A DNA stretch of 64,000 nt from Candidatus Falkowbacteria bacterium (GCA_016218485.1 JACRDY010000059.1:11529-75528); one strand, 5' to 3'; counted from the stretch's first letter, positions 2,478 to 62,532 are shown. The notes: generated by a model from the letters alone, not told the origin. Made by a program: numbers and translations.

Positions 2478-2512
2478 AACAGAAATTGGAAATTAGATAT
2501 TGGAAATTAAAG
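2478..2512. repeat. agatattggaaatt-type AT-rich repeat module (copy 1 of 3)
   Basis: Shares gaaattggaaattagatattggaaatt with 8070-8100 and 62412-62445. Confidence 0.6.
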
Positions 2513-2544
2513 ACACGGCTTATCCGGGGCTAATCAGTAGGAAC

Positions 2545-2835
2545 GGAGAATACCCCGCCGTAACTCCCCCTGCCAAGGGGGAGACGCCTCCGTTGCTGAG
2601 GTCTCTGCCCCGCCCCGCATTGTGCGGGGGGCGGAGCCGAAGCTTACGGAGGCGAGAGGGGGTGGGAGCGAAAACCCCACCCTGTCCCTCCCCTTACTTC
2701 GGTCGCCTGCGGCGAACCTTGTAAGGGGAGGAGACTGTCGAGCAACTTTTGGGTAGAGACAAAAGACTCCGGCAACCCCTCCTGTCCTCCCCCAACGCAT
2801 GAGGGAGAGACCGTCGAGCACGCTTGGTTGATACA
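2545..2835. repeat. GC-rich mosaic palindromic repeat cluster (modules ccccgcattgtgcgggg; ccccaccctgtccctcccctt; cctcctgtcctcccc)
   Basis: Modules recur at 4985-5085, 12790-13200, 19840-20400, 32385-32520 and 39640-39830. Confidence 0.75.
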
Positions 2836-2990
2836 TTCGTAGTCATAGTATTTTATCAGGAAAAGAGGAAAAAGAGAAGTGAAAATGTTGACAAATTTTT
2901 AAAAAGCAGTATGTTATATTGATGTCCTCTGGTAGGTCATTATGTAACAACACACGCCCAGAAGCGTGTAGAAAGGTACAGGGCTAGACC

Positions 2991-3614
2991 ATGAAGCTGC
3001 GTTATGTCACGTTGTTAGTGATCGTGATTGTGGTGGCGGTGTTTTGGACGTTCTACCGTCTGGGGTATACTCCCAGCGAGGTGCTTGCCGAAGCCTTCTA
3101 CGGTTCGCCCGGGCAGGTCGCCGAGGCAGAGGCGAGCGAAACACTGACTGGCACGAATAAGGGTGCCGTCACCGCGCAGTTGGCGGAACCGGATCCGGCT
3201 CGTGGGGTTCCGGAGTACCAGAAGCAGGGCTTCACTTCGGCGTTCAGGTGCGTTGACACGGATGGGGAGAATTTCCTCGTCGTGGAGAATGCCTTGGACT
3301 TCCCGGGTATTTTTACCGGACAGTTCGCGAAGGTTACCGCGGCCTTTGTGCTCCATGATTTCAACGATCGGAAGGTCGTGTTGGTCATTGATCCGGACTC
3401 TTTCCGGAACAACTTGGGGAGTTGGCTGAAGGACGCGGAAGCGGCGGAGGGCCGTGAAGGACCGACGGTCAAAGTGTACCGTCAAGCCTACGACGAACTG
3501 ATGAACGGGCTTGACGGTTTGCGTTTCGGCGAGACCTACTACCTGGAGGAAAAAGGGTTTACGCCCGAGAACGCTGACGGGTTCGCGATCGCCAGGTTCA
3601 CCACCATACCCTAG
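2991..3614 (+). CDS. hypothetical protein with an N-terminal membrane anchor
   Basis: 207-aa ORF; hydrophobic N-terminus LLVIVIVVAVFWTFY; GC-richer than neighbours; followed by a strong intrinsic terminator; no family recognised. Confidence 0.55.
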   Translation: MKLRYVTLLVIVIVVAVFWTFYRLGYTPSEVLAEAFYGSPGQVAEAEASETLTGTNKGAVTAQLAEPDPARGVPEYQKQGFTSAFRCVDTDGENFLVVENALDFPGIFTGQFAKVTAAFVLHDFNDRKVVLVIDPDSFRNNLGSWLKDAEAAEGREGPTVKVYRQAYDELMNGLDGLRFGETYYLEEKGFTPENADGFAIARFTTIP

Positions 3615-3635
3615 CGGGCATGAGCAACATTCAAG

Positions 3636-3670
3636 ACGCCCCGATGTCAGCATCGGGGCGTTTTCACTTT
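3636..3670. terminator. Rho-independent terminator (cgccccgatg-loop-catcggggcg + T-run), bidirectional between convergent genes
   Basis: Perfect 10-bp stem and flanking T tract read directly. Confidence 0.75.
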
Positions 3671-3679
3671 TTTCAGCAA

Positions 3680-4343: not shown

Positions 4344-4862
4344 TTAAGGTTTGAGAACCTGGTATCTCAATTGAATAGCATCCTCGGTCAGTTTTTGGAT
4401 ATCCAGCAGTCGCAGGGTCATATCAAGGTTTTGCCCTTCAGTGAATCTAATGCCTTGGCCGAAAATTTTTGGCTCAATCGTCAGGAGCAGTTCATCCACC
4501 AAGCCGGCGGCCAAGAATTGCGCGTTGGTTTTAGCGCCGCCGCCGAGAATCGCTGCAGGGAACCCTTTGGCTTCCAGGGCGTGAATGGTTTGCTCCGGGC
4601 TGCCTTTAAAAAATTCCAACACTCCCGGCTGCGTCTGACTAGCGAATTTTTCCGGTTCAGAGGTTAAAATAAAATTAAGCCGTCCGGGCAGTGGACGGTT
4701 AATCGTGGCATACGTTGAGCGGCCAAAAATAACCACGCCGGCTTTCTTGGTCTCGTCGGTGAATGACTGCTTGTCGGCGCTGCTGGTCCAGTCCGTCAGG
4801 TGCTCGCTGTCCAGGGCGATAATGCCGTCGGCGCTCATGGCCATCATTAGGGTAAGTTTCAT
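4344..4862 (-). CDS. dihydrofolate reductase family protein (RibD C-terminal/DHFR-like)
   Basis: 172 aa; MKLTLMMAMSADGIIA...FILTS...ILGGG pattern of the DHFR/RibD-C family; adjacent to thyA. Confidence 0.75.
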   Translation of the reverse strand: MKLTLMMAMSADGIIALDSEHLTDWTSSADKQSFTDETKKAGVVIFGRSTYATINRPLPGRLNFILTSEPEKFASQTQPGVLEFFKGSPEQTIHALEAKGFPAAILGGGAKTNAQFLAAGLVDELLLTIEPKIFGQGIRFTEGQNLDMTLRLLDIQKLTEDAIQLRYQVLKP

Positions 4863-4984
4863 AATTTTATTTCACCTATCACGTTTATTCTTTGTAATAC
4901 CCCGTCAGCTTGCTGCGGGGTTACCATATAATCCCGAGTCCAGAGCTTGCTCTGGGGTTCAATACCTTTTATTGAGTATTAATC

Positions 4985-6396: not shown

Positions 6397-6417
6397 GGAA
6401 ATAAGTTCAAAGTTCAA

Positions 6418-6560
6418 AAGTTATAAAGTTGAAAGTTCAAAGTCCAAAATCCCAAGTTCAAAGTTCAAATCAAGTTCAAAGTTTTAAGTTCAAATGCCAA
6501 ATCAGCGCATTGTTTGAACTTTGTCATTAGGTATTGATTTGAACTTTGGATTTTGAACTT
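6418..6560. repeat. AT-rich palindromic repeat (gttcaaagt arrays; caaagttcaaaatccaaatgacaaatcaa / rc)
   Basis: Same element at 14325-14450 and 45398-45525. Confidence 0.75.
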
Positions 6561-7126
6561 TAGTTATTTTTTGCTTTAATAGTTTTCAGAATGTCCTCAA
6601 TCTGCTGGTGCAGCTGTTCAATCGTGCCGTTGTTGTTAATCGTGAAGTTGGCAGTCTGGCCGGTTTCCAGGATGTGGATTTCCGCTTCGGCTCGTTCATC
6701 CTGCTGGAATTGTTCAAAGGTTTTACTGGTATCATCAACGTTTTCTCCGCGTTTGATGATTCGTTCGTAGCGAATTGGTTGATCAGCGGTTAGGTAAATG
6801 AGGGAGAAGCCGGCGAACCGTCGCAGGTATTTGATGTCCGGTTCACGGCGGACGCCGTCAACGGCGATCAGTTCGGCCGAATCTTTATTGACGTCTTCGG
6901 CAATCACCCGCGCCAGCGTGTCTTGGCCAAAATTTTTACGCAATGTTTGCGACATGTGCTGCATATTATCGCGGACGATCGGCAGGTACAAGCGGCCGAG
7001 GATATCGCGCAGTATGCCGGAAAACCGGTATGACGGCGCGCCGTATTTCTCCTTGAGATACTGGCAGGCGGTGCCTTTGCCACTGGAGATTTCGCCGACA
7101 AAGCCGAGGATGATTTTATTGGCCAT
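6560..7126 (-). CDS. P-loop nucleotide kinase (dNMP-kinase-like)
   Basis: 188 aa; GFVGEISSGKGT P-loop at the N-terminus; embedded in the thymidylate cluster; family assignment tentative. Confidence 0.55.
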   Translation of the reverse strand: MANKIILGFVGEISSGKGTACQYLKEKYGAPSYRFSGILRDILGRLYLPIVRDNMQHMSQTLRKNFGQDTLARVIAEDVNKDSAELIAVDGVRREPDIKYLRRFAGFSLIYLTADQPIRYERIIKRGENVDDTSKTFEQFQQDERAEAEIHILETGQTANFTINNNGTIEQLHQQIEDILKTIKAKNN

Positions 7127-7936: not shown

Positions 7937-8069
7937 ATGGCCGTGGTTAAGGAGTTAACAATTTCCTGTATTTTACCAGAGGGAGGAGTGGCAAGGCAAG
8001 AGGTCGGTTAATAACGCCCAAACTGACCTATAATCATTAGGGATAAGCCACATTCAGCAGAATAAAAAG

Positions 8070-8215
8070 GCAGATATTAGAAATTGGAAATTAGATATTG
8101 GGAATTGTCTAAAAGCAACGTTTTCGTTAACCAGGGTTTTAAAACCCTGGTTAACGGATGAGCAGAGTCTTTAATCAGGGTTTTCAAACCCTGGTTAACT
8201 TTCATTTTCCATTTC
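8070..8215. repeat. Composite element: agatattagaaattggaaattagatattgggaatt plus two copies of the perfect palindrome ttaaccagggttttaaaaccctggttaac
   Basis: Read directly; related composite at 62412-62532 and arm at 2478-2512; followed by a ccccgcattttgcgggg stem-loop at 8240-8285. Confidence 0.7.
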
Positions 8216-8346
8216 TGTCTTATTTCGTACATTCGCTTGCCTTCGCCGTAGCGGAGCCCCGCATTTTGCGGGGCTTCGCGCAGGCAAGGAACTCTAGGTC
8301 TCCATTGCCATGTATGATATTTTATATTAAACTCTAGGTAATTACT

Positions 8347-9671: not shown

Positions 9672-10355
9672 TTAAACCGCCAGCTTGATACTCGGGCCCA
9701 TAGAGGTGCAGAGTACGGCATGTTTGAGGTAGGTGCCTTTAGACGATGAGGGTTTGGCTTTACGTACCGCTTCTAGGAAGGTTTCGGCATTATCCAGCAG
9801 TTTGTCTTGGCCAAAGGAGATTTTGCCGATCAGCTGATGGATGTTGCCGGTATTGTCGCTCTTGAAGGTGATTTTACCTTTTTTTAATTCTGAAATTATT
9901 TTAGCGACGTTCGGGCCGACAGTTTCGTTTTTCGGCGACGGCATCAGGCCGCGAGTGCCAAGGATTTTGGCGATGACGGCGATCTTCGGCATCATGGCCG
10001 GAGTGGCTACCGCCACTGCAAAATCAGTTTTCTCGGTTTTTTTGATTTCATTGATCAGGTCTTCGCCGCCGACCAGGTCAGCGCCGGCTTCCCGCGCGTC
10101 CTTTTCCTTATCAGCTTCCACAAAGGCAGCCACCCGTTTGCTCTTGCCCGTGCCGTGCGGCAGGGTAATGGTGGAGCGGATTTGCTGGTCGCTCTTTTTG
10201 GTATCAATGCCGAGCCGCAGGTGGATTTCCACGCCGGCGTCAAATTTTTCAGTCTTATGGCTGATAATCAGATTCAGCGCTTCGGCCAGGCTGTAGACTT
10301 GGCTGCGGTTAATTTTGGTAGCTAGTTCGTTGTAACGTTTGCCGTGTTTTGGCAT
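9672..10355 (-). CDS. rplA: 50S ribosomal protein L1
   Basis: 227 aa; L1 family throughout. Confidence 0.93.
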   Translation of the reverse strand: MPKHGKRYNELATKINRSQVYSLAEALNLIISHKTEKFDAGVEIHLRLGIDTKKSDQQIRSTITLPHGTGKSKRVAAFVEADKEKDAREAGADLVGGEDLINEIKKTEKTDFAVAVATPAMMPKIAVIAKILGTRGLMPSPKNETVGPNVAKIISELKKGKITFKSDNTGNIHQLIGKISFGQDKLLDNAETFLEAVRKAKPSSSKGTYLKHAVLCTSMGPSIKLAV

Positions 10356-10420
10356 AGGTATTTCGTTCAGTGGTGCGTGCGTCCGCCGCGGCGGACTCCC
10401 ACGGTTAGTTAGTTGTCAGT
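10356..10420 (-). promoter_or_regulatory. rplA 5' leader with conserved structured element (GUGGGAGUCCGCCGCGGCGGACGCACGCACCAC)
   Basis: ~45 nt identical to the rplK leader; contains the 16-bp palindrome gtccgccgcggcggac. Confidence 0.5.
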
Positions 10421-10911: not shown

Positions 10912-10975
10912 ATACGTTTCGTTAAGTGGTGCGTGCGTCCGCCGCGGCGGACTCCCACGGTTGTTAGTTAAAAGT
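10912..10975 (-). promoter_or_regulatory. rplK 5' leader carrying the same structured element as the rplA leader
   Basis: gtgcgtgcgtccgccgcggcggactcccacgg on the + strand, identical to 10370-10410. Confidence 0.5.
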
Positions 10976-11589: not shown

Positions 11590-11640
11590 TGGAGTAGTCC
11601 CTAGTCCTTAGTCCTTAGTCCTTAGTCCTTAGTCCTTAGC
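11590..11640. repeat. Tandem heptamer array (tccttag)x6-7; in the nusG mRNA it reads (CUAAGGA)n just 5' of the start codon
   Basis: Read directly; overlaps the secE stop codon; the same heptamer in opposite orientation lies before pilT at 13226-13262. Confidence 0.85.
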
Positions 11641-11642
11641 TC

Positions 11643-11831
11643 TTAGCGGTTGATGAGGTATTCAAAGCCAAAGGAAAAGATATAGTCTAGGAGACCCAAA
11701 AAGGCGGCCAACACCAGGCTGATGCCGATCACCAGCGCGGTGTGTTTGGTCGTTTCTTTTTTGGTCGGCCAAGTGACTTTTTTGAGTTCCACCTTGGATT
11801 CTTTGAAATATTCCACGATTTTGTTGGCCAT
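11643..11831 (-). CDS. secE: preprotein translocase subunit SecE
   Basis: 62 aa; single C-terminal TM; conserved secE-nusG-rplK-rplA context. Confidence 0.85.
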   Translation of the reverse strand: MANKIVEYFKESKVELKKVTWPTKKETTKHTALVIGISLVLAAFLGLLDYIFSFGFEYLINR

Positions 11832-11845: not shown

Positions 11846-11947
11846 ATCCAGCACCTTCCAGAATACCCCATCAGCTTGCTGTGGGGGTGAATGGCTGAGA
11901 GAGTATGCCTGCAGTGTGTACTACCCCGACAGGAAGGTGCTGGATTT
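11846..11947. repeat. atccagcaccttccagaatacccc...ggaaggtgctggat palindromic repeat (long form with a gaatggctgagagagtat extension)
   Basis: Copies at 28771-28831, 31128-31245 and 51177-51237; partial at 4885-4935. Confidence 0.8.
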
Positions 11948-12131
11948 TAAAACCGCCCGGAGGCGGTATATTCAGTTTCTGTAGGTATTATAGGGGAAAA
12001 TACTGCGGCAGTCAAGGGGATAAGTTTTTGGGATAAGTTTTTGTACAGATAAGTTTTTGTGGTTGACATAAATAATATATTATGATAAAACAAGAAAGGT
12101 TTCCACCCCCATGACAATAAGGAGGCGGGTC

Positions 12132-13262: not shown

Positions 13263-13273
13263 TAAGGACTATT

Positions 13274-14323: not shown

Positions 14324-14324
14324 T

Positions 14325-50018: not shown

Positions 50019-50019
50019 T

Positions 50020-51440: not shown

Positions 51441-51441
51441 T

Positions 51442-53091
51442 ATGCTCAACTGCAAGAATTGTAATCAACCTTTCACCATCTACCCCGAAGACCAGGAAAT
51501 GTACGATAAGTTTGCCGTACCCGCGCCGCGGCGTTGTCCGCGTTGCCGGCTGATTCAGCGGCTGATGTTCCGGAACGCTCGGGCCCTGTATTACCGGAAG
51601 TGCGACCGCAGCGGCGAGACCATTTTGTCCAGCTATAATCCGAGTCAGCCGTTCCCGGTGTACAAGCCGGATATTTGGTGGAGTGACCAATGGGAAGCCA
51701 TGGATTACGCCCGGGATTATGATTTTGGCAAACCATTTTTTGCCCAATTCAAAGAGCTGAATGACGTGGTACCGCACTTCAGCCTCTTCGTCAGTAATGG
51801 CACGGTGGTGAATTGCGACTTTACCAACTGTATTGGTTTTTCCAAGAATTGTTATTTGACGTTTGAGACTGACTACGCGGAGGACAGCTATTACTCCAAC
51901 CTCTTGAAACGGAGCAAGGACATGGTGGACTGTTCTATTTGCTATGATGATGAATTTTGCTACCAGTGCGTTGATTGCCAGGCGTCGTACGGCTTGCGCT
52001 ATTGTCAAAATTGCACCGGTTGCCGGGACAGCTATTTCCTGTTTGATTGTAAATCGTGTAATGACTGCATCGGCTGTATCAACCAGCGCTATCAGAAATT
52101 CATGATTTTTAACGAGCAGTACAGTGAAGCAGAATATAACCAGAAAAAAGCCGCGCTGCGGCTGGATACCCGCTCGGGCGTCGCGGCGCTCGCTTCGCAG
52201 TGCCAGCAGTTTTTCGGGAAGCACCCGCACAAAAATTTGCAGTTTGAAAAGAACGTCAATAGTGTCGGTAACTATTTGTATAACTCCAAAAACGCATTCC
52301 AGTGCTTCGACTGCAGCGACCTGGAAGACTGCCGCTACTGCGCTAAGCTGTCAATCGGCGTCAAGTCGTGCATGGATTACAACTCGTGGGGCGACCGGGC
52401 GGAGCTCGTCTACAGCTGTTCGGATGTCGGCGGCGGCGTGTATAACCTGAAATTTTGCTGGGCGATTGATACCAAGACCTCAGACTGTGAATACTGCACG
52501 CAGTGTATTGCCTGCAAGGACTGCTTTGGCTGCAGCGGACTGCAAAAGAAGCAGTACTGCATTTTGAATAAACAGTATTCGGAAAAAGAGTATTTCGCGT
52601 TGAAAGAAAAAATTATTGCCAAAATGACAGCCGATGGAGAGTATGGTGAATTTTTTCCGGCAGAGCTGTGTCCGTTTGCCTATAATGAAACCATCGTGAT
52701 GGATTATTTCCCCCTAACCAAAGATGAAGCGTTGAAAGCCGGCTATCGCTGGTATGACCGGGAAAAGTCCAAGCAGCCTGCTGAAACTGAGGCGCCGGAT
52801 GCGATTGGCGAGGTGGCGGACGCCATCATTGGTAAGGTATTAGCCTGCCGTGATTGCCAGTCAAATTATAAGATTATTAAACAAGAATTAGATTTTTGCC
52901 GTCGGGCGAGCGCGCCGATTCCTAGCCAGTGTCCGGACTGCCGACATTTTGGCCGAATGAACAAGCGGATGCCGCTGAGTTTGATCACGGTCAAATGCGA
53001 TAAATGCGGCAATGACATGACGACCGGATATACTGCCGGGGCGGTGCAGAAGGTGTATTGCGAGGAATGTTATCAGAAGGAAATTTACTAG
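51442..53091 (+). CDS. Cys-rich multi-zinc-ribbon repeat protein, paralog 1 of 6 (unassigned family)
   Basis: N-terminal CxxC...CPRCR ribbon; two internal Cys-rich blocks each ending in YC(I/M)(L/F)N(K/E)QYSE.EY; GEYGEFFP...PFAYNET; C-terminal ribbons ending YCEECYQKEIY. Confidence 0.8.
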   Translation: MLNCKNCNQPFTIYPEDQEMYDKFAVPAPRRCPRCRLIQRLMFRNARALYYRKCDRSGETILSSYNPSQPFPVYKPDIWWSDQWEAMDYARDYDFGKPFFAQFKELNDVVPHFSLFVSNGTVVNCDFTNCIGFSKNCYLTFETDYAEDSYYSNLLKRSKDMVDCSICYDDEFCYQCVDCQASYGLRYCQNCTGCRDSYFLFDCKSCNDCIGCINQRYQKFMIFNEQYSEAEYNQKKAALRLDTRSGVAALASQCQQFFGKHPHKNLQFEKNVNSVGNYLYNSKNAFQCFDCSDLEDCRYCAKLSIGVKSCMDYNSWGDRAELVYSCSDVGGGVYNLKFCWAIDTKTSDCEYCTQCIACKDCFGCSGLQKKQYCILNKQYSEKEYFALKEKIIAKMTADGEYGEFFPAELCPFAYNETIVMDYFPLTKDEALKAGYRWYDREKSKQPAETEAPDAIGEVADAIIGKVLACRDCQSNYKIIKQELDFCRRASAPIPSQCPDCRHFGRMNKRMPLSLITVKCDKCGNDMTTGYTAGAVQKVYCEECYQKEIY

Positions 53092-53154
53092 CGCACAGCA
53101 CAGAGCTTATAGCACAAAGCTATGCGCTCTGAGCTCTGTGCTTTGAGCTACTTT
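53092..53154. repeat. Inter-paralog palindromic spacer (gcacagcacaaagc...gctctgagctctgtgctttgagc); same at 54841-54903 and 58418-58477
   Basis: Three near-identical copies read directly. Confidence 0.8.
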
Positions 53155-54840
53155 ATGCCAACCTGTAAACAATGCAATCAACCTTTCATCCTTGGCCAGA
53201 TCGGCACAGATATTTTGCGGCGGCTGGATGTACCTGAACCGTCAGTGTGTGATGTTTGCGCCGTGCGCCAGCTGATGGCCTTTCGGAACGAGCGGACTTT
53301 TTATTCCAGCCAGTGTCAGAAGTGTTCGAAAACCATTCTATCGATGTATCCGCCAGACACCGCGCTGAGCGTCTACTGTCGCGACTGCTGGTGGGGAGAT
53401 ACTTGGGACGGCACGCAGTTTGGCCGAGTGTATCGTGGGCCGGAAACATTTTTCCAAGAGCTAGCTGAACTGCAGAAAGTCGTGCCTCGGGAAGGATTGG
53501 TTAACCTGAACAGTCCGGATTGCGATTACTGCAACCACGTCCGTGATTGCAAGTCCTGCTATATGTGTTCGCTCTTGTCTGATCAGTGTGAAGAATGTTA
53601 CTACTGCTACTGGATTGTCACGGTGAAGGATTCAGCGGCCTGTTACTATGGGCGCAATAACCAGCGCTGTTACTTCTGTGTCGCCACGATCCAGAGCTAT
53701 GGCTGCTCGTATGTATTGGAATGTGAAAATTGTTTAGACTGCCACTATAGCTTTGATCTGCGAGGCTGTAAGAATTGCATGTTCAGCAGCAACTTACGCA
53801 ATCAGCAGTATGTTTTTGAGAATCAACAGTTGACCAAGACTGAATACGAAACGCGGGCCGCGGCAGTCAATCGGGGGAGCTGGCAGCAGTCACGAGACTC
53901 TGTGCAACGCTGGCATCAGCTGATTGACCAGGCGGTGAAGGCGTACTCATACCAGAGTAAATGTGAAAATTCTACCGGGGATAATATCCAGAGCAGCGTG
54001 AACACCCAGCTCGCCTATAATAGTTTTGAAGATGAAAACGCCTATAACGCCGCGAGCGTGATTTGTGCTAAGAATATTTTTAACGGTTTTGCCGTGGGCA
54101 GCCAGCCGACCGAATGGGCGAGTAATATCGCCGTCGTGAAGGGCGGCACGCAGATCGTCAGCTGTTTCAACACCGCGTACTCCAGCGATATTTATTTTTG
54201 TGAGAATCTAATTTCCTGCATGGACTGCATCGGCTGTATTGGCCTGCACAAAAAGAAGTACTGCATTCTGAATACACAGTATGAGGAAGAGGAGTATAAA
54301 AAAATCAAAGCCGAGCTACTCGGGTATTTGCGTCAGAGCGGCGCGCTGTCGGAATTTTTCCCAAAGTCATTTTCGCCATTTGCCTACAATGAAACCGCGG
54401 CGCAGGATTTTTATCCTTTGACGAAAGAACAAGCCGTTCAGCTGGACTATACTTGGAAGGATGAATTACCCGGGACTTTTGGCCATGAGACGCTGCCAGC
54501 CGATGGCGTGCCCGATCGGATTGCCGAGGTGAATGATGACATCTTACGGCAGACTCTAGCCTGTATTCACTGCGGCCGGAATTTCAAATTAATTAAACAA
54601 GAGCTGACACTTTATCGGTCGCTCGGCGTGCCGATCCCGCGCGAATGTTTTAATTGTACGTTGCGTCAGCGGCTGGACTTGATGGGGGAGCGTGATTTAC
54701 GGGAGCGGCAGTGTGATTGTACGCGAGCAGAACATCAGCAGCATCAGGGTAAAACATGCCAAAATAAGTTTTTGACGAAATATACCGCGAAAGATAAGAA
54801 GGTGTACTGCGAGGAGTGTTATCAGAAGGAAATTTACTAA
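53155..54840 (+). CDS. Cys-rich multi-zinc-ribbon repeat protein, paralog 2
   Basis: Same architecture; true start MPTCKQCNQPF (the ORF-track start lies in the inter-paralog palindrome). Confidence 0.8.
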   Translation: MPTCKQCNQPFILGQIGTDILRRLDVPEPSVCDVCAVRQLMAFRNERTFYSSQCQKCSKTILSMYPPDTALSVYCRDCWWGDTWDGTQFGRVYRGPETFFQELAELQKVVPREGLVNLNSPDCDYCNHVRDCKSCYMCSLLSDQCEECYYCYWIVTVKDSAACYYGRNNQRCYFCVATIQSYGCSYVLECENCLDCHYSFDLRGCKNCMFSSNLRNQQYVFENQQLTKTEYETRAAAVNRGSWQQSRDSVQRWHQLIDQAVKAYSYQSKCENSTGDNIQSSVNTQLAYNSFEDENAYNAASVICAKNIFNGFAVGSQPTEWASNIAVVKGGTQIVSCFNTAYSSDIYFCENLISCMDCIGCIGLHKKKYCILNTQYEEEEYKKIKAELLGYLRQSGALSEFFPKSFSPFAYNETAAQDFYPLTKEQAVQLDYTWKDELPGTFGHETLPADGVPDRIAEVNDDILRQTLACIHCGRNFKLIKQELTLYRSLGVPIPRECFNCTLRQRLDLMGERDLRERQCDCTRAEHQQHQGKTCQNKFLTKYTAKDKKVYCEECYQKEIY

Positions 54841-54903
54841 CACACAGCACAAAGCGCAGAGCACAAAGCTATGCGCTCTGAGCTCTGTGCTTTGAGCTAC
54901 TGT

Positions 54904-56565
54904 ATGCCAACCTGTAAAAACTGCACCACCGACTTCACCATCACCGACGCAGACAAAACGTTCTACGCCAAGATTGACGTACCCGAGCCGACGCGCTGCC
55001 CGCAGTGCCGGAAACAGCGGCGTTTGAGCTTCCGCAATGAGTCAAATTTTTATTTAACCAAATGTCAGCGGTGTCATAAAGAAACGGTTTCGGTGTATTC
55101 ACCGAATAAACCTTTGGTGGTGTATTGTAAAGACTGCTGGTGGGGTGAGGACTGGAATCCGTTGGATTACGGCCAAGAGTTTGATTGGCAGAAAAGTTTT
55201 ACCGAGCAGTTTAGAGATCTGATGGCGGTGGTGCCGCGGCCGGCGCTCTTGCATTCCGAGAGCGTGAACTGCGATTATAGCATGTTTTCGGCCAATAATA
55301 AGGACTGCTACATGCTGGTACAGTCCAGTAACTGCGAAGAATGCCACTACTGCTACTGGGTGCAGAAATGCCGTAATTGTTTGGATTCGGCGTTTTGTTT
55401 GGACTGCGAGCTGTGCTATCAAGTTGTCGGCGGGGAAAAGTGTTATAACTGTTTTTATTGTAACAATTGTTCCGGTTGCTTGGACAGTCGGTTTCTGCTT
55501 AATTGTCGTGGCTGCAAAAATTGCTTTGGCTGCGTTAATCTCAATAACGCGCAATATTGCATTTTTAATGAACAGAAAACGAAAACCGAGTATGAAACAT
55601 TTATTCAATCAGTAGATTTTATTTCATACCGACACTACCGAGAGTACCAGGAAAAGTTTTATCAGTTTTCTTTACAGCACCCGCGTCGTTTCGCTGAAAT
55701 TTATCAGGCGGATAATTCTACGGGTAATTATCTCAAACGGGTTAAAAACGTCACCATGATTTTTGACGGTTATGATATTGAAGACTGTAGCTACGGTCAG
55801 CACGTCTTGCGTGAGGTGAAAGATGTGATGGATGTCAGTAATGCCGCTCGTAAAGCAGAATTAGTCTATGAAAGTGTTCAGGCGGTATTGAACGTGTATC
55901 AGATTCGTTTTAGTTTATTCCCGCGTCAAGGCGCTTCATTTTTGGATTACTGCGATCATTGCGTCGGGGCTAAGAATTGTTTCGGCTGCATCGCGGTGCG
56001 GAATCAAAAGTATTGCATTTTGAATAAACAGTATAGTGAAAAAGAATATACCGTTGTGGTGCCGAAAATTATTAATCACCTCAAACAAACAGGGAAGTGG
56101 GGAGAATTTTTTGATCCGAGTCTGTCGGCGTTTGGCTATAACGAAACGAACGCCATGGAATTTTTCCCGTTGACGAAAAAAGCGGCAATGACTCAAGGGT
56201 TTAACTGGGAGGATAACACCGGCGGTACTTTCGGCCAGGAAACAATCAAGTGGGCAAACATGCCGGATCGTTTCAGCGACTATGCGGGCGACTTGAGCCG
56301 AGAAGTGTTGACGTGCTCTGACTGCCGGCGGAATTATAAGTTGGTGGCCGTAGAACTGGATTTTTATAAAAAATATAGCTTACCCATTCCGCGGCAGTGC
56401 CCGAAGTGTCGCCACCGCGAGCGCATCACCAGCCGGAATCCGGAACAGCTGTATCACCGTGCCTGTATGAACGCAGGGTGTAAGAATGAATTTGAAACCA
56501 CGTATTCACCCGCCCGACCGGAAAAAGTTTATTGTGAAGCGTGTTACCAGAAAGAGATTTATTAG
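54904..56565 (+). CDS. Cys-rich multi-zinc-ribbon repeat protein, paralog 3
   Basis: Same architecture; 5' ~100 nt near-identical to paralogs 5 and 6. Confidence 0.8.
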   Translation: MPTCKNCTTDFTITDADKTFYAKIDVPEPTRCPQCRKQRRLSFRNESNFYLTKCQRCHKETVSVYSPNKPLVVYCKDCWWGEDWNPLDYGQEFDWQKSFTEQFRDLMAVVPRPALLHSESVNCDYSMFSANNKDCYMLVQSSNCEECHYCYWVQKCRNCLDSAFCLDCELCYQVVGGEKCYNCFYCNNCSGCLDSRFLLNCRGCKNCFGCVNLNNAQYCIFNEQKTKTEYETFIQSVDFISYRHYREYQEKFYQFSLQHPRRFAEIYQADNSTGNYLKRVKNVTMIFDGYDIEDCSYGQHVLREVKDVMDVSNAARKAELVYESVQAVLNVYQIRFSLFPRQGASFLDYCDHCVGAKNCFGCIAVRNQKYCILNKQYSEKEYTVVVPKIINHLKQTGKWGEFFDPSLSAFGYNETNAMEFFPLTKKAAMTQGFNWEDNTGGTFGQETIKWANMPDRFSDYAGDLSREVLTCSDCRRNYKLVAVELDFYKKYSLPIPRQCPKCRHRERITSRNPEQLYHRACMNAGCKNEFETTYSPARPEKVYCEACYQKEIY

Positions 56566-56650
56566 GAACGACACGCCCTCTGGGCGTGTTATGTTTGTTA
56601 CGCGCTCTGTAACCATAACACAGCCAGAGGCTGTGTCGTTCCCTTGGAGG
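56566..56650. repeat. Inter-paralog gacacgccctctgggcgtgttatg...cataacacagccagaggctgtgtc palindrome
   Basis: Same family as 48850-48950 and 60112-60190. Confidence 0.8.
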
Positions 56651-56695
56651 AACAATTTTTGACAAAATTTAAAATCCTGGCTATACTAAAGCATT

Positions 56696-58417
56696 ATGCC
56701 ATACTGCCGAAATTGCTCCCAAGCGTTTGACATTACGTTAAAAGAAAAAGATTTTTACGCTAAGATGGGCACCAAACAGCCGAGCCATTGTTTTGATTGC
56801 CGGATGCAGCGCAAGTACGCGTTCAGAAATGAGCGCAAAATTTATAACCGCCAGTGCAGCTTGTGTCAGCAACAGATTATCAGCTCTTACCCGGCGGACG
56901 CGCCTTTTCCGGTGTATTGTTTTGATTGTTGGTGGTCGGATCGGTGGGACGGTTTGAGCTACGGCCGGGATTTTGATTGGTCCCGTCCATTTTTTTCGCA
57001 ACTCTCTGAGCTGTCGCTCAAGGTCCCGCACCAAGCCCTGCCCAATCCGAATAATAACCAGAACAGCCCGTATGTTACGTGGGCCGATTGGAACAAAAAT
57101 TGTTATTTAGTCTTTTCTTCTTCAATGTGTGAAGATTGTTTGTACTCTGAAGTTTTGGTTGACGCTCGAGACTGTGTTGACTGCACGAATGTTAAAGAAT
57201 CGGAGAACTGTTATTTTTCTATCGATTTGCAGAAATGCTATAACGTCAAATTTAGCCGCAATGTAAAAGATTGCCTGGATTGTAATTTTTGTTTTGATTG
57301 CGCTGACTGCAAAAATTGTTTTTTGTCTTATAATCTGCGTCACGGAGAATACTATATCCGTAATGTTCAGTACTCGCCGGACGCGTATGTCCAGGCAGTC
57401 GAGCGGATTATGGCCAGCCGCAGCGAGCTCGTGCGGGCGTGGGATGAATTTATTAACATGATGCGCTCTGACGCCATCCACCAGTTCGCTCGTCAGGTGA
57501 AGTGTGAAGACGTGGAGGGTGATGAGCTGTATGCCTGCAAGCGCAGTTTCAATAGTTTTGATTCGCGCGAGATTCAGGATTGCTGCAATATTATTTACGG
57601 CGACAAGATTAACGACTGCGCTGATAGCTTCGCCATCGTTGACCACGCTGAAAAATGTTTGGAGGTCTTTAGTGTCAATGGCGGCTATCAAAATATGTAC
57701 GGCTATGGTTATTGGGGAAAATCCCAAAATAGCCGGTACAGCAATACCTGCGTTTCGTCCGTTGATTGTTTCGGCTGCATTGGTCTAAAACACCAGAAAT
57801 ATTGTATTCTGAACAAGCAGTATTTGGCGGCCGAATATCAAATCATGGTCAAAAAAGTTTTGGAACATATGCGGAAGTCTAATTATCCGACGTACGCTGG
57901 CCAGACGAGCGAGTGGGGTGAATTTTTCCCGGTGCAGCTTTCACCCTTTGCTTATAATGAAACAATGGCTCATGTTTATTATCCGCTTAAAAAAGAAGAA
58001 GTTTTAGCGCGCGGCTGGGGCTGGAGGGACGAAAATGATATACTCACTGGTAAAGAAACTATTCATGGGGAGGCATTGCCGGATGCTGCGGCATCAGTTC
58101 CCAAGGGCATGACTGACCAGGTGATCGGCTGCGCTGACTGTGGCCGGAATTACAAGCTGATCAAGCAGGAAATAGATTTCTACACCAAACATACTCTGCC
58201 GCTGCCCAAGATGTGTCCGGAGTGCCGCTTTCAGCAGCGGTTGGCCCTGCGTAATCCGCGTAAGCTGTGGCCGCGGCAGTGCACCTGTCTCCTGGGTCAC
58301 GCCAGCCATCAGGGTCAATCAGTCTGTCCGATTCATTTCAAGACCACCTACCGGCCGGCCGAAGGGGGAGAGGCGAAAGTGTATTGTGAGGAATGTTATC
58401 AGAAGGAAATTTACTAG
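56696..58417 (+). CDS. Cys-rich multi-zinc-ribbon repeat protein, paralog 4
   Basis: Same architecture (MPYCRNCSQAF... ...VYCEECYQKEIY). Confidence 0.8.
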   Translation: MPYCRNCSQAFDITLKEKDFYAKMGTKQPSHCFDCRMQRKYAFRNERKIYNRQCSLCQQQIISSYPADAPFPVYCFDCWWSDRWDGLSYGRDFDWSRPFFSQLSELSLKVPHQALPNPNNNQNSPYVTWADWNKNCYLVFSSSMCEDCLYSEVLVDARDCVDCTNVKESENCYFSIDLQKCYNVKFSRNVKDCLDCNFCFDCADCKNCFLSYNLRHGEYYIRNVQYSPDAYVQAVERIMASRSELVRAWDEFINMMRSDAIHQFARQVKCEDVEGDELYACKRSFNSFDSREIQDCCNIIYGDKINDCADSFAIVDHAEKCLEVFSVNGGYQNMYGYGYWGKSQNSRYSNTCVSSVDCFGCIGLKHQKYCILNKQYLAAEYQIMVKKVLEHMRKSNYPTYAGQTSEWGEFFPVQLSPFAYNETMAHVYYPLKKEEVLARGWGWRDENDILTGKETIHGEALPDAAASVPKGMTDQVIGCADCGRNYKLIKQEIDFYTKHTLPLPKMCPECRFQQRLALRNPRKLWPRQCTCLLGHASHQGQSVCPIHFKTTYRPAEGGEAKVYCEECYQKEIY

Positions 58418-58477
58418 TGCACAGCACAAAGCGCACAGCACAAAGCTATGCGCTCTGAGCTCTGTGCTTTGAGCTAT

Positions 58478-60109
58478 ATGCCTAAATGTAAACAATGCAC
58501 CACCGATTTCCCCATCACCGACGCAGACAAAACGTTCTACGCCAAGATTGACGTACCTAAACCGACGCGCTGTCCGCAATGCCGCCGCGTTCGCCGATTG
58601 AGCTACCGTAATGAAATCACATTGTATCCCGCCATCTGTGGTTTGTGTAAGAAAAGCATGATCAGCATGTACAACCCGGACGGATCGTATGTGGTGTATT
58701 GTCAGGATTGCTGGTGGGGAGACGGCTGGGACCCGACGGCATCCGGTCAGACGTATGATCCGAGCCGATCATTTTTTGAACAATTTAGTGAGTTGATGAA
58801 AAAAGTGCCGCGGATCAGTTTGATTAATAAAGAAGCGGACAATAGCGAGTACTGTAATTTTTCTTGGCGGAACAAAAATTCCTACCTTTTATTTACCGGC
58901 GGAGAGAACGATGACGTGTTTTATGCTAATCGCTGCTGGAAGTGCCGGAGTAGTATTGATTGCTCCAACCTGTATAATTGTGAATTGTGTTATGAAGCGA
59001 CTGATTCCGCCAATTGTTATAATTGCGCTTGGCTAGAATACTCAACCGGCTGCTCTGACTGTTGGCTGGGGTACAACCTTAGCGGCTGCTCGGACTGTTT
59101 CGGCTGCGTTAACCTGTCTAATCAGAAATTTCATATTTTTAATACCCCGGTACCTGAAGCCGAGTACCGTCAGCGGATCGCGGAGTTGAAGAAGGACCTG
59201 CCGGCGGCGGCGCAGCTATTTCGGGCACAAAAAATGAAAGGGGTGCGCAAGTACGCCAATATTATAAAATCAGTGAATTGCAGCGGTGATTCAATCGTTG
59301 GCAGCAAGAATTGCCAGTCGTGTTTCCGGGTCAAAGACGCGGAAGACTGCAAGTACGTTTGCGATACGACATTGATCAAAGACAGCTATGACGTTGATAA
59401 CGATGATCATTCAGAATTGCTCTATGAGTGCATTGGTAACGAGTCCAACCATAATCAGCAATTCATTGACATCTGCTGGTTTGATCGGGATATTCAGTAC
59501 TGTAGCCTCTGCATGAGCTCAAAGAATCTGTTTGGCTGTGTGGGAATGAAAAACGCGGAGTACTGTATTTTGAATAAAAAATATTCAGCGGAAGAATATG
59601 AGACGCTACGCCAGCAGATTATTGTCAAAATGAAACAAGATGGGGAATATGGTGAGTTTTTTCCCAGTAAATTTTCGCCCTTTGGTTATAATGAGACGAA
59701 CGCCTCCCTGTATTACGAGCTCAAAAAAGAGCAGGCTGTTGCCGCCGGCTTTACCTGGCAGGACAATTTGCCGTCAACGACTGGTAAAGAAACGCTCAAG
59801 GAATTACCGGCGGACATTAGCCAGGTAAACGAGGGGATTACCAAAGAGATTTTGGCCTGCCAGTCGTGCGGTAAGAATTATAAATTTATTCCCCAGGAAG
59901 TGAAACTGTATAAAATGCTCGGCGTACCGCTCCCGCCACAGTGTTTCCGCTGTCGTCATGTTGGCCGGATCCACCGACGGAATGGCCAGACACTCTATAG
60001 CCGCACCTGCATGAAAGACGGCTGCAAGAATTCATTTGAGACGCCATACGCGCCGGATCGGAAAGAAGTGGTTTACTGTGAGGAGTGCTATCAGAAGGAA
60101 ATTTACTAA
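58478..60109 (+). CDS. Cys-rich multi-zinc-ribbon repeat protein, paralog 5
   Basis: Same architecture. Confidence 0.8.
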   Translation: MPKCKQCTTDFPITDADKTFYAKIDVPKPTRCPQCRRVRRLSYRNEITLYPAICGLCKKSMISMYNPDGSYVVYCQDCWWGDGWDPTASGQTYDPSRSFFEQFSELMKKVPRISLINKEADNSEYCNFSWRNKNSYLLFTGGENDDVFYANRCWKCRSSIDCSNLYNCELCYEATDSANCYNCAWLEYSTGCSDCWLGYNLSGCSDCFGCVNLSNQKFHIFNTPVPEAEYRQRIAELKKDLPAAAQLFRAQKMKGVRKYANIIKSVNCSGDSIVGSKNCQSCFRVKDAEDCKYVCDTTLIKDSYDVDNDDHSELLYECIGNESNHNQQFIDICWFDRDIQYCSLCMSSKNLFGCVGMKNAEYCILNKKYSAEEYETLRQQIIVKMKQDGEYGEFFPSKFSPFGYNETNASLYYELKKEQAVAAGFTWQDNLPSTTGKETLKELPADISQVNEGITKEILACQSCGKNYKFIPQEVKLYKMLGVPLPPQCFRCRHVGRIHRRNGQTLYSRTCMKDGCKNSFETPYAPDRKEVVYCEECYQKEIY

Positions 60110-60111
60110 CA

Positions 60112-60190
60112 AGGGAACGACACGCCCTCTGGGCGTGTTATGTCGGTTACACGCTCTGTAACGATAACACAGCCAGAGGCTGTGTCGCTC
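60112..60190. repeat. Inter-paralog palindrome (same family as 56566-56650)
   Basis: Near-identical. Confidence 0.8.
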
Positions 60191-60200
60191 CGAACAGCAT

Positions 60201-61841
60201 ATGCCAACCTGTAAACAATGCACCACCGACTTTCCCATCACCGACGCAGACAAAACGTTCTACGCTAAGATTAGCGTACCCGAGCCGACGCGCTGTCCGG
60301 ACTGCCGGCAGCAGCGACGGTTGTCGTGGGTCAATGAAATGAATCTATATCCCCGTCAGTGCGACCTATCAGGTAAAAATATTATTTCGTCATGTCGGCC
60401 GGATAGCGGCTTGATTATTTATGATACTCACCGGTGGTGGGGTGACGGCTGGGAAGGTCTGAATTTTGGGGTTGAGTATAATGAGGGTCAAAAATTTTTT
60501 GATCAATTTTTTGCATTACATAAGACCGTACCCCATCCAGCGCTCAACGTTACCTATGGCACGTTGATTGACAGCGAGTACGTGAATTACTGTGGTCATA
60601 CCAAAAGTAGCTACCTGATATTTGACAGTGACTACGATGAGGATTGCTATTACTGCTATTCAGTTAATAATTCTAAAGACCTGGTTGATTGTTTAAAAAT
60701 GCAGCGTTCTGAATTGTGCTATAGCTGTATTGACTGCGATGAATGTTTTAACTTGTTTTACTCTCAAGATTGTTTGCGCTGTTCCGAGAGTTATTGGTTA
60801 AAAAACTGTTACAACTGCGTCAATTGTTTTGGCTGCGTGAATGCGCGGAATCAGAAGTATTGTTGGTTCAACGAACAATTAACGCCGGAAGAATATCAAC
60901 GTCGTTTAGCCGGAGCTACCATCAGCAGCCGTCAGGCGGTTAGACAGTGGCAGACGAAGTATGCGGATTTTAGATTGCAGTATCCCTGTATTTACCAGCA
61001 CGGGATCAAAAATGACGGCTGTACCGGCGATTACCTGAAAAACACCAATCAAGTCGCTGATTCGTATGATTGCTGGGAGGCGCAGAATTGCCGCTACTGT
61101 TACGCGATTTATTTTTCCTCAAAAGATATGTATGACGTTTTCCAGTGGGGGAATTGTCAGCTGATGTATGAAGGCGTGGTGGTGGGGGAGAATGATTATA
61201 ACTGCAAATTTTGTTTCCAATGCTATAACAGCTGTCAAAACCTAGAATACTGTTTTGAGAGTCATGGCTGCAAAAACTGCTTTGGCTGTGTTGGCTTAAA
61301 GAAAAAAGAATTTTGCATTCTTAATAAACAGTATACCGAACCGGAGTACTTACGATTACGGGAACAGATTATTCAGAAAATGAAAGCCGATGGTGAATAT
61401 GGCGAGTTTTTCCCGGCGGCATATTCTCCGTTTGGTTATAATGAAACGACGGCCCGGTTTTACTATCCGTTGTCGCGCGAGCAGGCGCTGGAACGTGGCT
61501 GGCGCTGGTTTGATCAAGAGGAAAAGAACGTTGATCATAAAGCACCGCCGGATGATTTGGGAATGGTGACCGAGGATATATTGAGAGAAACGTACGTCTG
61601 CGCCTGTGGCAAGTCGTTCAAAATTATTCCCCAGGAATGGAAATTTTATCAGAATTTAAAAATCCCTCTGCCCGATCAATGTTACATCTGCCGTCATCAG
61701 GATAGACTACGGCAGCGCAACCCGCAGCATCTCTGGCCGCGTCAGTGTGCCAAATGTCAGAAAGACATGCAGACGACATATGCTCCGGACCGGCCGGAAA
61801 TAGTCTACTGTCGTGAATGTTTCCGCGAGGCAGTGTATTAG
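60201..61841 (+). CDS. Cys-rich multi-zinc-ribbon repeat protein, paralog 6
   Basis: Same architecture; C-terminus diverged to YCRECFREAVY. Confidence 0.8.
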   Translation: MPTCKQCTTDFPITDADKTFYAKISVPEPTRCPDCRQQRRLSWVNEMNLYPRQCDLSGKNIISSCRPDSGLIIYDTHRWWGDGWEGLNFGVEYNEGQKFFDQFFALHKTVPHPALNVTYGTLIDSEYVNYCGHTKSSYLIFDSDYDEDCYYCYSVNNSKDLVDCLKMQRSELCYSCIDCDECFNLFYSQDCLRCSESYWLKNCYNCVNCFGCVNARNQKYCWFNEQLTPEEYQRRLAGATISSRQAVRQWQTKYADFRLQYPCIYQHGIKNDGCTGDYLKNTNQVADSYDCWEAQNCRYCYAIYFSSKDMYDVFQWGNCQLMYEGVVVGENDYNCKFCFQCYNSCQNLEYCFESHGCKNCFGCVGLKKKEFCILNKQYTEPEYLRLREQIIQKMKADGEYGEFFPAAYSPFGYNETTARFYYPLSREQALERGWRWFDQEEKNVDHKAPPDDLGMVTEDILRETYVCACGKSFKIIPQEWKFYQNLKIPLPDQCYICRHQDRLRQRNPQHLWPRQCAKCQKDMQTTYAPDRPEIVYCRECFREAVY

Positions 61842-61844
61842 ACA

Positions 61845-61900
61845 CAGATTACACAGATAATCACAACTGGCACAGATCCGTGTGATCTGTGTAATCTGTG
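61845..61900. repeat. cacagat heptamer-based palindrome
   Basis: gacacagattacacagataatcaca...gtgatctgtgtaatctgtgtc. Confidence 0.7.
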
Positions 61901-61904
61901 TCTA

Positions 61905-61965
61905 AAAAAAAGAGCCGGCGGACGCGCCAGGCGAGGTGGATACTTCGCGCGTCCGTCGGTTTTTT
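61905..61965. terminator. Bidirectional intrinsic terminator (cggacgcgc...gcgcgtccg stem with T-runs on both strands)
   Basis: Read directly. Confidence 0.7.
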
Positions 61966-62257
61966 AGTGCAGTAGCGGAGTGTCGCTGCTGGCTCCGCAG
62001 TCGTGGATGACGGGACCCGGAGCATCGTCAGCGGTGAAGCTGACATTACAGATGTTGCAATACCATCGCGTGCCGCCTTCACCGACCACGGCCATCCGTG
62101 TTTTGGCTGGCGGCGTCGCCGCCGGTGCGGTGGTGGCGAATGCGGTTGTTGTCAGTACTGTGTGGCATTCCGGGCAGCGTCCGGTACTGGCGGACGGATC
62201 ACCGTGCCAGCCGCACCCCGCACAAGTCGTATACTGTCTGGCTTGCATCCCAGGCAT
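61964..62257 (-). CDS. small GC-rich double zinc-ribbon protein
   Basis: 97 aa; CAGCGWHG...CPEC and YCNICN...HDCG halves joined by a Thr/Ala/Pro linker; ggagggg RBS 5 nt upstream. Confidence 0.55.
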   Translation of the reverse strand: MPGMQARQYTTCAGCGWHGDPSASTGRCPECHTVLTTTAFATTAPAATPPAKTRMAVVGEGGTRWYCNICNVSFTADDAPGPVIHDCGASSDTPLLH

Positions 62258-62411
62258 TGTCCCCTCCTATGGTTTGAGGATGTCTATAGGGTACAGGGAT
62301 TTTTTCTTTTTGTCAAAGGTATTTAAAAGGTATTTAAAATCCACATTATTTTCGGGGGACGAATTTTGTGCTATACTGTGTTTACCGATATATCAATAAT
62401 TAAAGAGGTAT

Positions 62412-62532
62412 TTAGATATTAGAAATTAGATATTGGAAATTAAAGACTCTACTTTTCTGGTTAACCGGGGTTTTAAAATCTTGGTTAAGAAAGACATTGC
62501 TGACAAACAATTTCCAATATCTAATTTCCAAT
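62412..62532. repeat. Complete composite palindromic element (agatattagaaattagatattggaaatt ... ggttaaccggggttttaaaatcttggttaag ... caatttccaatatctaatttccaatttct) upstream of eno
   Basis: Related to 8070-8215 and 2478-2512. Confidence 0.7.

Follow-up and report, generated by a model that had tools for sequence, protein, structure and literature searches.

Among described dispersed repeats, the closest in form to the element considered here are the repetitive extragenic palindromic (REP) sequences and the REPINs that contain them, for which mobilization as a single-stranded hairpin by a REP-associated tyrosine transposase (RAYT) acting in trans has been proposed (Bertels and Rainey 2011, PMC3116915; we also compared the RAREFAN preprint, 10.1101/2022.05.22.493013). 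We have examined a stretch of 64,000 nucleotides from Candidatus Falkowbacteria bacterium (GCA_016218485.1 JACRDY010000059.1:11529-75528), referred to below as the window, in which a repeat made of a palindrome and heptamer-periodic arms is found at 2455-2537 (copy A, at gatB), 8070-8236 (copy B, between a dCMP deaminase gene and a suhB-like gene) and 62412-62540 (copy C, at eno). The best reading of this element is a selfish hairpin repeat resembling a REPIN or a foldback-type miniature inverted-repeat transposable element (MITE), and not a conserved regulator-binding site for suhB or eno. We think it fairly probable that the three copies represent a family of ~130-nt non-coding dispersed hairpin repeats with two separable parts, the heptamer arms and a REP-like palindrome.

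As in REPs and REPINs, the palindrome of the element is short, extragenic and non-coding, and inverted doublets with a spacer could fold in single-stranded DNA or mRNA. When the copies were considered as REPIN doublets, palindromes 1 and 2 of copy B were predicted to fold together (-44.4 kcal/mol, z = -9.1), and copy C has a single palindrome with REPIN-like inverted arms; the orientation of a unit is undefined, because the palindrome is symmetric. The element differs from REPs and REPINs in that its palindrome is perfect or near-perfect with an AT-rich centre, its observed copy number is low, it has additional heptamer-periodic arms, and the palindrome is also found inside open reading frames (ORFs). 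Membership in a REP/RAYT system is not established, and judged by its sequence the element appears most like a REPIN or a foldback-type MITE. In the literature searched we found no description of RAYTs, REPINs or heptamer-arm hairpins in Patescibacteria.

With MITEs (reviewed in PMC10969869) the element has in common a length of ~130 nt, a non-coding and AT-rich sequence, terminal inverted repeats of 27-35 nt, a strong intergenic hairpin, several copies, and nesting, as seen with palindrome 2 within copy B. It differs in that target-site duplications were not found, no insertion sequence with the same ends is known as a parent (and the window has none), and the arms resemble heptamer arrays of the host clade rather than transposase-binding ends. 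Long inverted arms composed of short tandem subrepeats are characteristic of the Drosophila Foldback elements. Rickettsia palindromic elements (RPEs), of ~150 nt, are tolerated in frame in essential coding genes (PMC10969869), and in-frame palindromes of the type described here are likewise found in the miaB and leuS genes of other Patescibacteria (L008 and L009, respectively); however, there is no sequence relationship to RPEs, the conserved core is 30 nt rather than ~150 nt, and the window copies are all intergenic.

The repeat and its three copies in the window

A search of the window for the palindrome TTAACCNGGGTTTTAAAACCCNGGTTAA with no more than three mismatches gave three matches, at 8127-8154 (no mismatches), 8171-8198 and 62461-62488 (two mismatches each), and no match in any of the 100 dinucleotide-preserving shuffles used as background. 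The arm, GAAATTGGAAATTAGATATTGGRAATT, has four matches, at 2482-2508, 8080-8106 and 62415-62441 on the plus strand and 62509-62535 on the minus strand, where none is expected. By alignment, the 28-32-nt palindrome and the 27-nt heptamer-periodic arm are parts of one ~130-nt repeat family with three copies, laid out as outer arm, spacer Y (AAGACTCT...), palindrome, spacer X and inverted outer arm; these parts recur together between copies at 70-85% identity, in agreement with the composite repeated element of the original prediction. Copies B and C have 78 nt in common at 85% identity, including the non-periodic spacer X (the stretch in copy B being complementary to 62460-62537), and a second shared stretch of 54 nt at 70% identity includes spacer Y. 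A profile search of the window returned the same three loci (E = 1e-12 to 1e-26) and no further copy. The element is 129-167 nt long, and every copy lies in the non-coding DNA that makes up 17% of the window; ORFs that cross it are mechanical only, as where an ORF beginning at a TTG at 62433 reads through copy C into eno as a spurious extension. L001 and L016, independent Logan assemblies of this organism, carry the element with an identical sequence, which excludes an assembly artefact. We note also that the L016 contig starts (position 1, corresponding to window position 8137) exactly at the centre of palindrome 1, showing that such palindromes fragment short-read assemblies.

Rereading and pattern matches place the element at all three loci where it had been described, next to a gene of the inositol-monophosphatase family (suhB-like) and the enolase gene as had been stated, but several details are revised. 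The palindrome had been given as a perfect one of 29 bp, which its odd length precludes; the perfect palindrome spans 8126-8155 (30 nt), and counting the C and G on either side extends it to 8125-8156 (32 nt). Two palindromes are indeed present at the suhB locus, although they are 44 nt apart from start to start (with a 16-nt gap) and not 50. What had been taken for an arm alone at 2478-2512 reaches 2537, taking in spacer Y and the palindrome's first 8 nt as well, and beyond its arm it has an outer flank in common with copy B. The segment 62412-62532, described as the full element with an inverted right arm, is the complete copy C, which extends to 62540.

In the predicted fold of copy C (-41.7 kcal/mol, z = -5.7) an arm stem of ~30 bp, with 20 consecutive pairs plus extensions between 62412-62442 and 62508-62540, leads through an unpaired bubble of spacers X and Y to the apical palindrome, a unit of 28-32 nt whose own hairpin would have a stem of 12-14 pairs. 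Copy B corresponds to the copy C unit reversed and rearranged, with a second palindrome at the junction of arm and spacer Y; taking 24 nt of palindrome 2 out of copy B restores the junction seen in copies A and C, and palindrome 2 is therefore a secondary insertion or duplication. Copy A is truncated, does not fold by itself (z = +1.5), and ends abruptly at a GC-rich dispersed repeat. The family to which this GC-rich repeat belongs (CCCCACCCTGTCCCTCCCCTTACTTCGG...) has members at 2534-2836, 12831-12950, 19975-20039, 32380-32520 and 39675-39728, in both orientations and in copies of up to 120 nt at 88% identity, one of which truncates copy A.

Upstream of copy C is an extended -10-like motif of a class with 15 of its 21 window matches in intergenic DNA, typically 28-167 nt upstream of start codons. 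Because this class is mainly intergenic and rightly placed before many genes, copy C, which begins 35 nt downstream of the motif, would lie in a putative eno 5' untranslated region (UTR), ending 3 nt before the AUG; promoters here are consensus predictions.

Could the palindromes serve as paired operator sites of a dimeric transcription factor, as the original prediction had also suggested, through which suhB, eno and gatB would be co-regulated? Palindrome 1 is perfect with a second copy 44 nt away, and every window copy is located in a 5' intergenic region, but we consider this explanation highly improbable. Neither palindrome nor arm is found upstream of the eno orthologues of the closest relatives (L002, L003 and L004), which have a TGGTATAAT-type promoter and leaders that are unstructured or unrelated, with no conserved eno 5'-UTR structure among them. 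Both are also absent from the syntenic dCMP-deaminase/suhB spacer of a more distant relative represented in three samples (L017-L019), in which the spacer is 125 nt long as compared to 410 nt in the window but retains a TTGCCA -35-like hexamer. Copies B and C lie off the predicted promoter sites, copy B being separated by 71 nt and 85 nt from the -35-like hexamers of the divergent promoter-like sites on its two sides. Nor is the sequence confined to regulatory non-coding DNA, since in other Patescibacteria it is found in frame in miaB and leuS and 3' of unrelated genes (rplL, rplA and an HU-like gene). Further, an operator of 28-32 nt with a 12-14-bp stem would be a long one, and Pfam annotation of the window reveals no regulator gene common to the loci or adjoining them. 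It is the absence from orthologous promoters, the position off promoter sites, and the presence in coding and 3'-end contexts elsewhere that cause the operator explanation to fail. Absence from orthologous promoters and occurrence within coding regions were also the grounds on which the original prediction itself was to be given up, and both apply.

Table 1. Positions of the element's parts, associated promoter-like sites and examples of heptamer-periodic hairpins, numbered from the first nucleotide of the window.
Feature	Position	Strand	Remarks
Copy A, truncated	2455-2537	+	outer flank 2455-2477, arm 2478-2508, spacer Y 2509-2529, palindrome start CTAATCAG 2530-2537
Promoter-like site, dCMP deaminase gene	7970-7999	-	context of copy B
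Copy B, X-side arm	8070-8107	+	element in minus orientation
Copy B, spacer X	8108-8124	+	within 78 nt, 85% complementary to 62460-62537
Copy B, palindrome 1	8125-8156	no strand	32-nt perfect palindrome CGTTAACCAGGGTTTTAAAACCCTGGTTAACG
Copy B, spacer Y	8157-8170	+	reverse complement of AAGACTCTGCTCATC
Copy B, palindrome 2	8171-8198	no strand	2 mismatches; predicted pairing with palindrome 1
Copy B, degenerate Y-side arm and outer flank common to copy A	8199-8236	-	by alignment
Promoter-like site, suhB-like gene	8305-8333	+	TTGCCA hexamer also in syntenic relative L017
Extended -10-like motif TGCTATACT, likely eno promoter	62369-62377	+	motif class enriched in intergenic DNA; putative function
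Copy C, left (Y-side) arm	62412-62442	+	heptamers TTAGATA TTAGAAA TTAGATA TTGGAAA TTA; pairs with 62508-62540 in predicted fold
Copy C, spacer Y AAGACTCTACTTTTCTGG	62443-62460	+	unpaired bubble; homologous to 8155-8173 (reverse complement) and 2509-2529
Copy C, apical palindrome TTAACCGGGGTTTTAAAATCTTGGTTAA	62461-62488	no strand	3 non-complementary pairs, all G-T on + strand
Copy C, spacer X GAAAGACATTGCTGACAAA	62489-62507	+	unpaired bubble; homologous to 8108-8124 in reverse complement
Copy C, right (X-side) arm, inverted	62508-62540	-	stops 3 nt before eno ATG at 62544
Heptamer/8-mer hairpins, examples	6403-6561, 14322-14448, 16669-16811, 18172-18350, 32660-32742
Heptamer/8-mer hairpins, further examples	45397-45519, 47005-47090, 50008-50121, 61842-61905, 63798-63890

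The palindrome in other Patescibacteria

Scans of metagenome, species-representative genome and viral collections, with the palindrome pattern relaxed for the species representatives, identified matches in five metagenome contigs and six species-representative contigs, nearly all from metagenome-assembled genomes (MAGs) of Parcubacteria/Patescibacteria, and in none of the viral contigs. An identical 30-mer, GTTAACCTGGGTTTTAAAACCCAGGTTAAC, is carried by L006, L008, L009, L010 and L013, and is present in three metagenome samples and several Parcubacteria/Patescibacteria MAGs, some of the exact copies being intragenic. As part of our favored explanation, it seems rather likely that the apical palindrome GTTAACCNGGGTTTTAAAACCCNGGTTAAC is a REP-like sequence dispersed across Patescibacteria.

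In other MAGs the core forms the apex of longer, locus-specific and near-perfect palindromes, with T6-7 on its left, A6-7 on its right, terminator-like outer stems, and symmetric flanks of 8-26 nt that are particular to each locus. Hairpins of this type follow rplL in L010 and rplA in L013, and in L014 they flank an HU-like gene; there, one copy of the core is inside an 82-nt palindrome with 26-nt symmetric flanks. These A-run/stem/T-run hairpins directly behind genes are comparable to the SPRITE repeats of S. pneumoniae (PMC10969869), but no window copy is found at the 3' end of a gene, and only one of the three window palindromes has a T-tract.

In the miaB-like gene of L008 the palindrome is in frame. 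Homology to MiaB (7mjv) stops at QNVNSYG, exactly at the palindrome, and the protein has ~44 extra residues relative to 7mjv, beginning with the palindrome-encoded VNLGFKTQVN. Six nucleotides after the palindrome is CTAATTTCCAACTTCC; the 92.5 kb of DNA searched outside the window contains no other match to the arm core, and this one has the same orientation as in the window (~0.05 expected; one occurrence in 500 shuffles), so that a palindrome-plus-arm module exists outside this genome. At this locus (4678-4880, on the same contig as L011, JBAYGB010000057.1), the extra residues include the palindrome, the arm-like motif, and a second, unrelated in-frame palindrome, AGGAGTTCAACTCCTTTAAAAGGAGTTGAACTCCT.

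The palindrome is also in frame in leuS of L009, where a Y1_Tnp domain (PF01797, E = 7e-15) comes directly after it without leaving the ORF. The best model for this domain is the REP-associated tyrosine transposase model NF047646 (E = 2e-20, 73 bits, slightly below the 80-bit cutoff), as compared to 55 bits for the IS200 model; it retains the HUH motif and the C-terminal catalytic tyrosine, and its nearest solved relatives are TnpA proteins of the ISDra2/IS608 type. The likeness to REP/RAYT systems is thus that one copy of the palindrome adjoins a domain scoring best as a RAYT. The difference is that the window itself has no RAYT, and the RAYT-like domain is from a different organism, is accompanied by a palindrome on just one side, and forms an in-frame fusion within leuS. 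We note that the L009 ORF (8769-11981, 1070 aa) contains the domain at residues 261-373, between the catalytic core and the CP1 editing domain, and that the same coding sequence holds a heptamer array (AAATCAC) at 10037-10061.

Taking these comparisons together, the element probably spread in the form of a single-stranded DNA hairpin, with an HUH transposase provided in trans. As envisaged for REPINs, the hairpin would be cut and rejoined by a transposase of the RAYT/IS200 type, and palindrome-driven template switching would keep arms and flanks symmetric; such switching would explain why the inverted flanks are perfect yet particular to their locus, and why the arms are perfect yet different from one relative to another. 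Effects on the host would be by-products: copy C would add a -42 kcal/mol stem-loop to the putative eno 5' UTR, copy B would pad the region between two divergent promoters, and copy A would be a dead remnant.

Several observations weigh against this explanation. We infer the transposase step from one remote locus (L009), where the palindrome is on one side only, and the RAYT link stays at that one locus because a homologue search with the L009 domain found no others. Pfam annotation of the 64-kb window reveals neither a transposase nor an integrase, and tblastn with the Y1 transposase domain, like Pfam, finds no Y1_Tnp there. Copy number is low, with three copies in the window and one or two exact copies of the palindrome per MAG elsewhere. 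No consistent target-site duplication or cleavage motif is seen by inspection at the ends of the element (the arm-end flanks being GGC/AGATATT, AAAC/AGAAATT, ATTT/AGATATT, and the reverse complement of AGAAATT followed by ATTT, with no consistent direct repeat), and short duplications would be unreadable because the context is AT-rich. Insertion is inferred from absence in comparators that are 61-75% identical in protein and not from a precise junction. Finally, the outer arm end of each copy faces a start codon, at distances of 3 nt (eno), 38 nt (gatB) and 133 nt (dCMP deaminase), which could hint at a host function.

Heptamer-periodic hairpins of the genome

The arms of the element belong, as one sequence family, to a clade-wide class of heptamer-periodic inverted arrays. 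Among the 66 merged tandem arrays in the window, 32 have a period of 7, three a period of 14 and 12 a period of 8, and autocorrelation of intergenic DNA peaks at lags of 7, 14 and 21, peaks that coding DNA lacks. Most arrays are inverted pairs and form long hairpins, and all of those tested fold (z of -5.5 to -13.5); indeed, nearly every AT-rich spacer is a long hairpin with tandem 7-mer or 8-mer arms, drawn from varied sequence families. Some families recur, for example AAGTTCA arrays at 6403, 14322 and 45397, AAGTTGA/AAGTTAT arrays at 7127, 9140, 9563, 10410 and 10960, AATTACG arrays at 14793, 18172 and 47996, and an 8-mer family at 16669 and 32660. A heptamer hairpin typically has its beginning at the upstream stop codon, or overlaps that codon, and stops a few nucleotides (often 0-8) short of the next start. 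Ordinary GC-rich intrinsic terminators are also present, sometimes directly behind a heptamer hairpin (61842-61905 followed by 61906-61962).

Period 7 also dominates the arrays of the closest relatives (L002-L004, with eno 67-75% identical), and a periodic-arm hairpin that begins at the stop codon, but differs in sequence from one to another, is present in the orthologous eno-pgm spacers of the window, L002 and L003. The more distant syntenic relative L017 (suhB 61% identical) has short spacers without heptamer hairpins. A general rule in which stop triplets in the heptamers provide stops in all three frames was rejected, because many units (AATTACG, AAGTTCA, AGATTGC and AGATACC) are seen by inspection to have no stop triplet. 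Two TAGTCCT heptamer arrays in inverted orientation, 1.6 kb apart (11595-11646 and 13226-13271), bracket an unannotated ORF (12111-12710) and GC-rich repeats, an arrangement like that of a composite element.

Cyanobacteria are reported to carry STRR heptamer arrays with nested small dispersed repeats (SDRs) (Mazel 1990; Elhai 2008). The likeness to the STRR arrays is in intergenic tandem heptamers of many types together with a hairpin-forming dispersed repeat of 21-30 nt; the differences are that the arrays here are in Patescibacteria and are inverted pairs forming long hairpins that abut stop codons. TIGR arrays consist of tandem units of ~36 nt with a Nop-domain Tas gene nearby, and we rejected this assignment, the window having no array of ~36-nt period and no such gene among its Pfam annotations. 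TIGR-Tas arrays have been reported from phages and parasitic bacteria (PMC12045711), and SDRs are mentioned in PMC3116915.

The regular positions of these hairpins support the main rival to a selfish repeat, namely a host-selected structural RNA or DNA element that punctuates transcripts by acting as an mRNA 3'-end stabilizer, RNase III site, attenuator or terminator, or as an insulator that separates adjacent transcription units, copy C then being a regulatory stem-loop of the eno 5' UTR. We regard this as unlikely, although it ranks above both an origin in situ and the operator. The heptamer hairpins fill co-directional spacers between stop and start codons, and the hairpin of the eno-pgm spacer is kept in three relatives while its sequence changes. 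In other MAGs (L010, L013 and L014) the palindrome has the A-run, GC-stem and T-run architecture of an intrinsic terminator behind rplL, rplA and the HU-like gene; palindrome 2 scores as terminator-like, and four of four stem substitutions in the window copies are, by inspection, compatible with G-U pairing on the sense strand. However, the three copies of the family are in divergent 5' regions and none follows a gene end, copy B is outside the predicted transcription units, and a T-rich tail is present on palindrome 2 alone, palindrome 1 and the copy C palindrome having no U-tract. The genome also has its ordinary GC-rich terminators, the eno 5' UTRs of the relatives have no equivalent structure, and the substitutions in L012 would be A-C mismatches on the transcribed strand. 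The element matches no Rfam family, and Rfam 15 at the gathering threshold gives only tRNA matches in the window.

A second alternative is that the hairpins arise in situ without transposition, by replication slippage beside stop codons and mirroring by template switching around a small palindrome, the three copies being related by segmental duplication or gene conversion with no element-specific enzyme. The unequal, slippage-like arms of some arrays are consistent with this (e.g. 12 CAGTAAT units as opposed to ~5 at 50008-50121), as are repeat units that often include the local stop codon (e.g. GATTTAA at the end of eno in L002), the inverted flanks, perfect, locus-specific and up to 26 nt long, that enclose the core in L014, and the similarity of copies A and B beyond the arm. 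But the non-periodic spacers X and Y and the palindrome are common to loci 54 kb apart, and the adjacency of palindrome and arm recurs in another MAG. Moreover, slippage and local mirroring cannot account for an identical 30-mer in different phylum-level relatives and in unrelated ORFs, and we consider an origin of this kind quite improbable.

Returning to the selfish hairpin repeat, we propose more tentatively, as a possibility that we hold doubtful in its joint form, that the palindrome with its adjoining CTAATTTCCAAYTTC arm motif is the recognition hairpin of a Patescibacteria-specific RAYT-like HUH system, and that the heptamer inverted arrays are an undescribed, self-symmetrizing class of intergenic hairpin. 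Such a RAYT-like system may be able to enter hairpin apices (terminator loops and heptamer hairpins) and essential genes in frame. The arrays, which abut stop codons, fill most spacers in the clade, and keep position and structure in relatives while their sequence changes, could be either foldback-type selfish DNA or a lineage-specific intercistronic punctuation.

The element is ordinary as a class, that of selfish hairpin repeats, but the heptamer hairpins, as a feature of the clade, and the palindrome, with its spread through Patescibacteria and its RAYT-like link, deserve a census of their own. Genomes of the candidate phyla radiation (CPR)/Patescibacteria are usually called streamlined and repeat-poor, whereas in this window roughly one tandem array in two has a period of 7, and most AT-rich spacers form long hairpins. 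If confirmed, these findings would extend REP/RAYT-type mobility of single-stranded DNA hairpins to CPR bacteria and provide a tractable case of palindrome growth and spread in tiny genomes. At a practical level, hairpins of this kind break assemblies, seed spurious ORF extensions, and can pass for operators.

Genes and other features of the window

Homologues of the enolase and the suhB-like protein assign the window to Patescibacteria, and the suhB-like protein is 100% identical to one listed by NCBI under Candidatus Falkowbacteria. By Pfam annotation the window contains a dense run of housekeeping genes, including miaA, gatB, tmk, DHFR, thyA, dut, the dCMP deaminase gene, the suhB-like gene, rplA, rplK and nusG, together with those for a PilT-like ATPase, PBP2 and a Mur ligase, and purL, uvrABC, rpsB, tsf, gap and eno. 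A near-consensus promoter at 2885-2920 on the plus strand (TTGACA, 17 nt, TGTTATATT) suggests that the real gene in this region is the ORF at 2991-3614 (plus strand) and not the overlapping 3015-3653 (minus strand); neither has a Pfam match. Between suhB and rplA is a gene for a 23S rRNA intervening-sequence protein (PF05635, 9164-9508) that is without a counterpart in the syntenic relative L017.

On the minus strand, rplA and rplK each have ahead of them a near-identical GC-rich leader, GTGGTGCGTGCGTCCGCCGCGGCGGACTCCCACGG (10356-10405 and 10912-10960), in each case just after a heptamer hairpin, and L017 has CGTGG...CCCAC analogues. This is probably a duplicated L1-binding autoregulatory leader.

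Seven tandem paralogues at 51313-61841 encode Cys-rich proteins of 546-592 aa with weak treble-clef zinc-finger matches at their ends (PF13451 and PF23477), and are separated either by 30-nt CACAGCACAAAGC-type spacers or by 78-nt palindromes. GC-rich palindromes of 78 nt are present in spacers at 48856-48933, 56565-56642 and 60114-60191, and others of 61 nt at 28771-28831, 31128-31188 and 51177-51237, with a half copy at 11846-11906; both families are distinct from the AT-rich heptamer hairpins.

A DndB-like gene (38335-39414) lies in a stretch of low GC content (0.38) and is followed by a DUF559 endonuclease-like fragment (40012-40233); the two may form a small foreign island. At 35231-35299 on the minus strand Rfam gives a borderline tRNA match (29.8 bits, the gathering score being 29) with no corresponding ARAGORN call, and the tRNA-Glu at 18355-18429 is the sole tRNA supported by both Rfam and ARAGORN.

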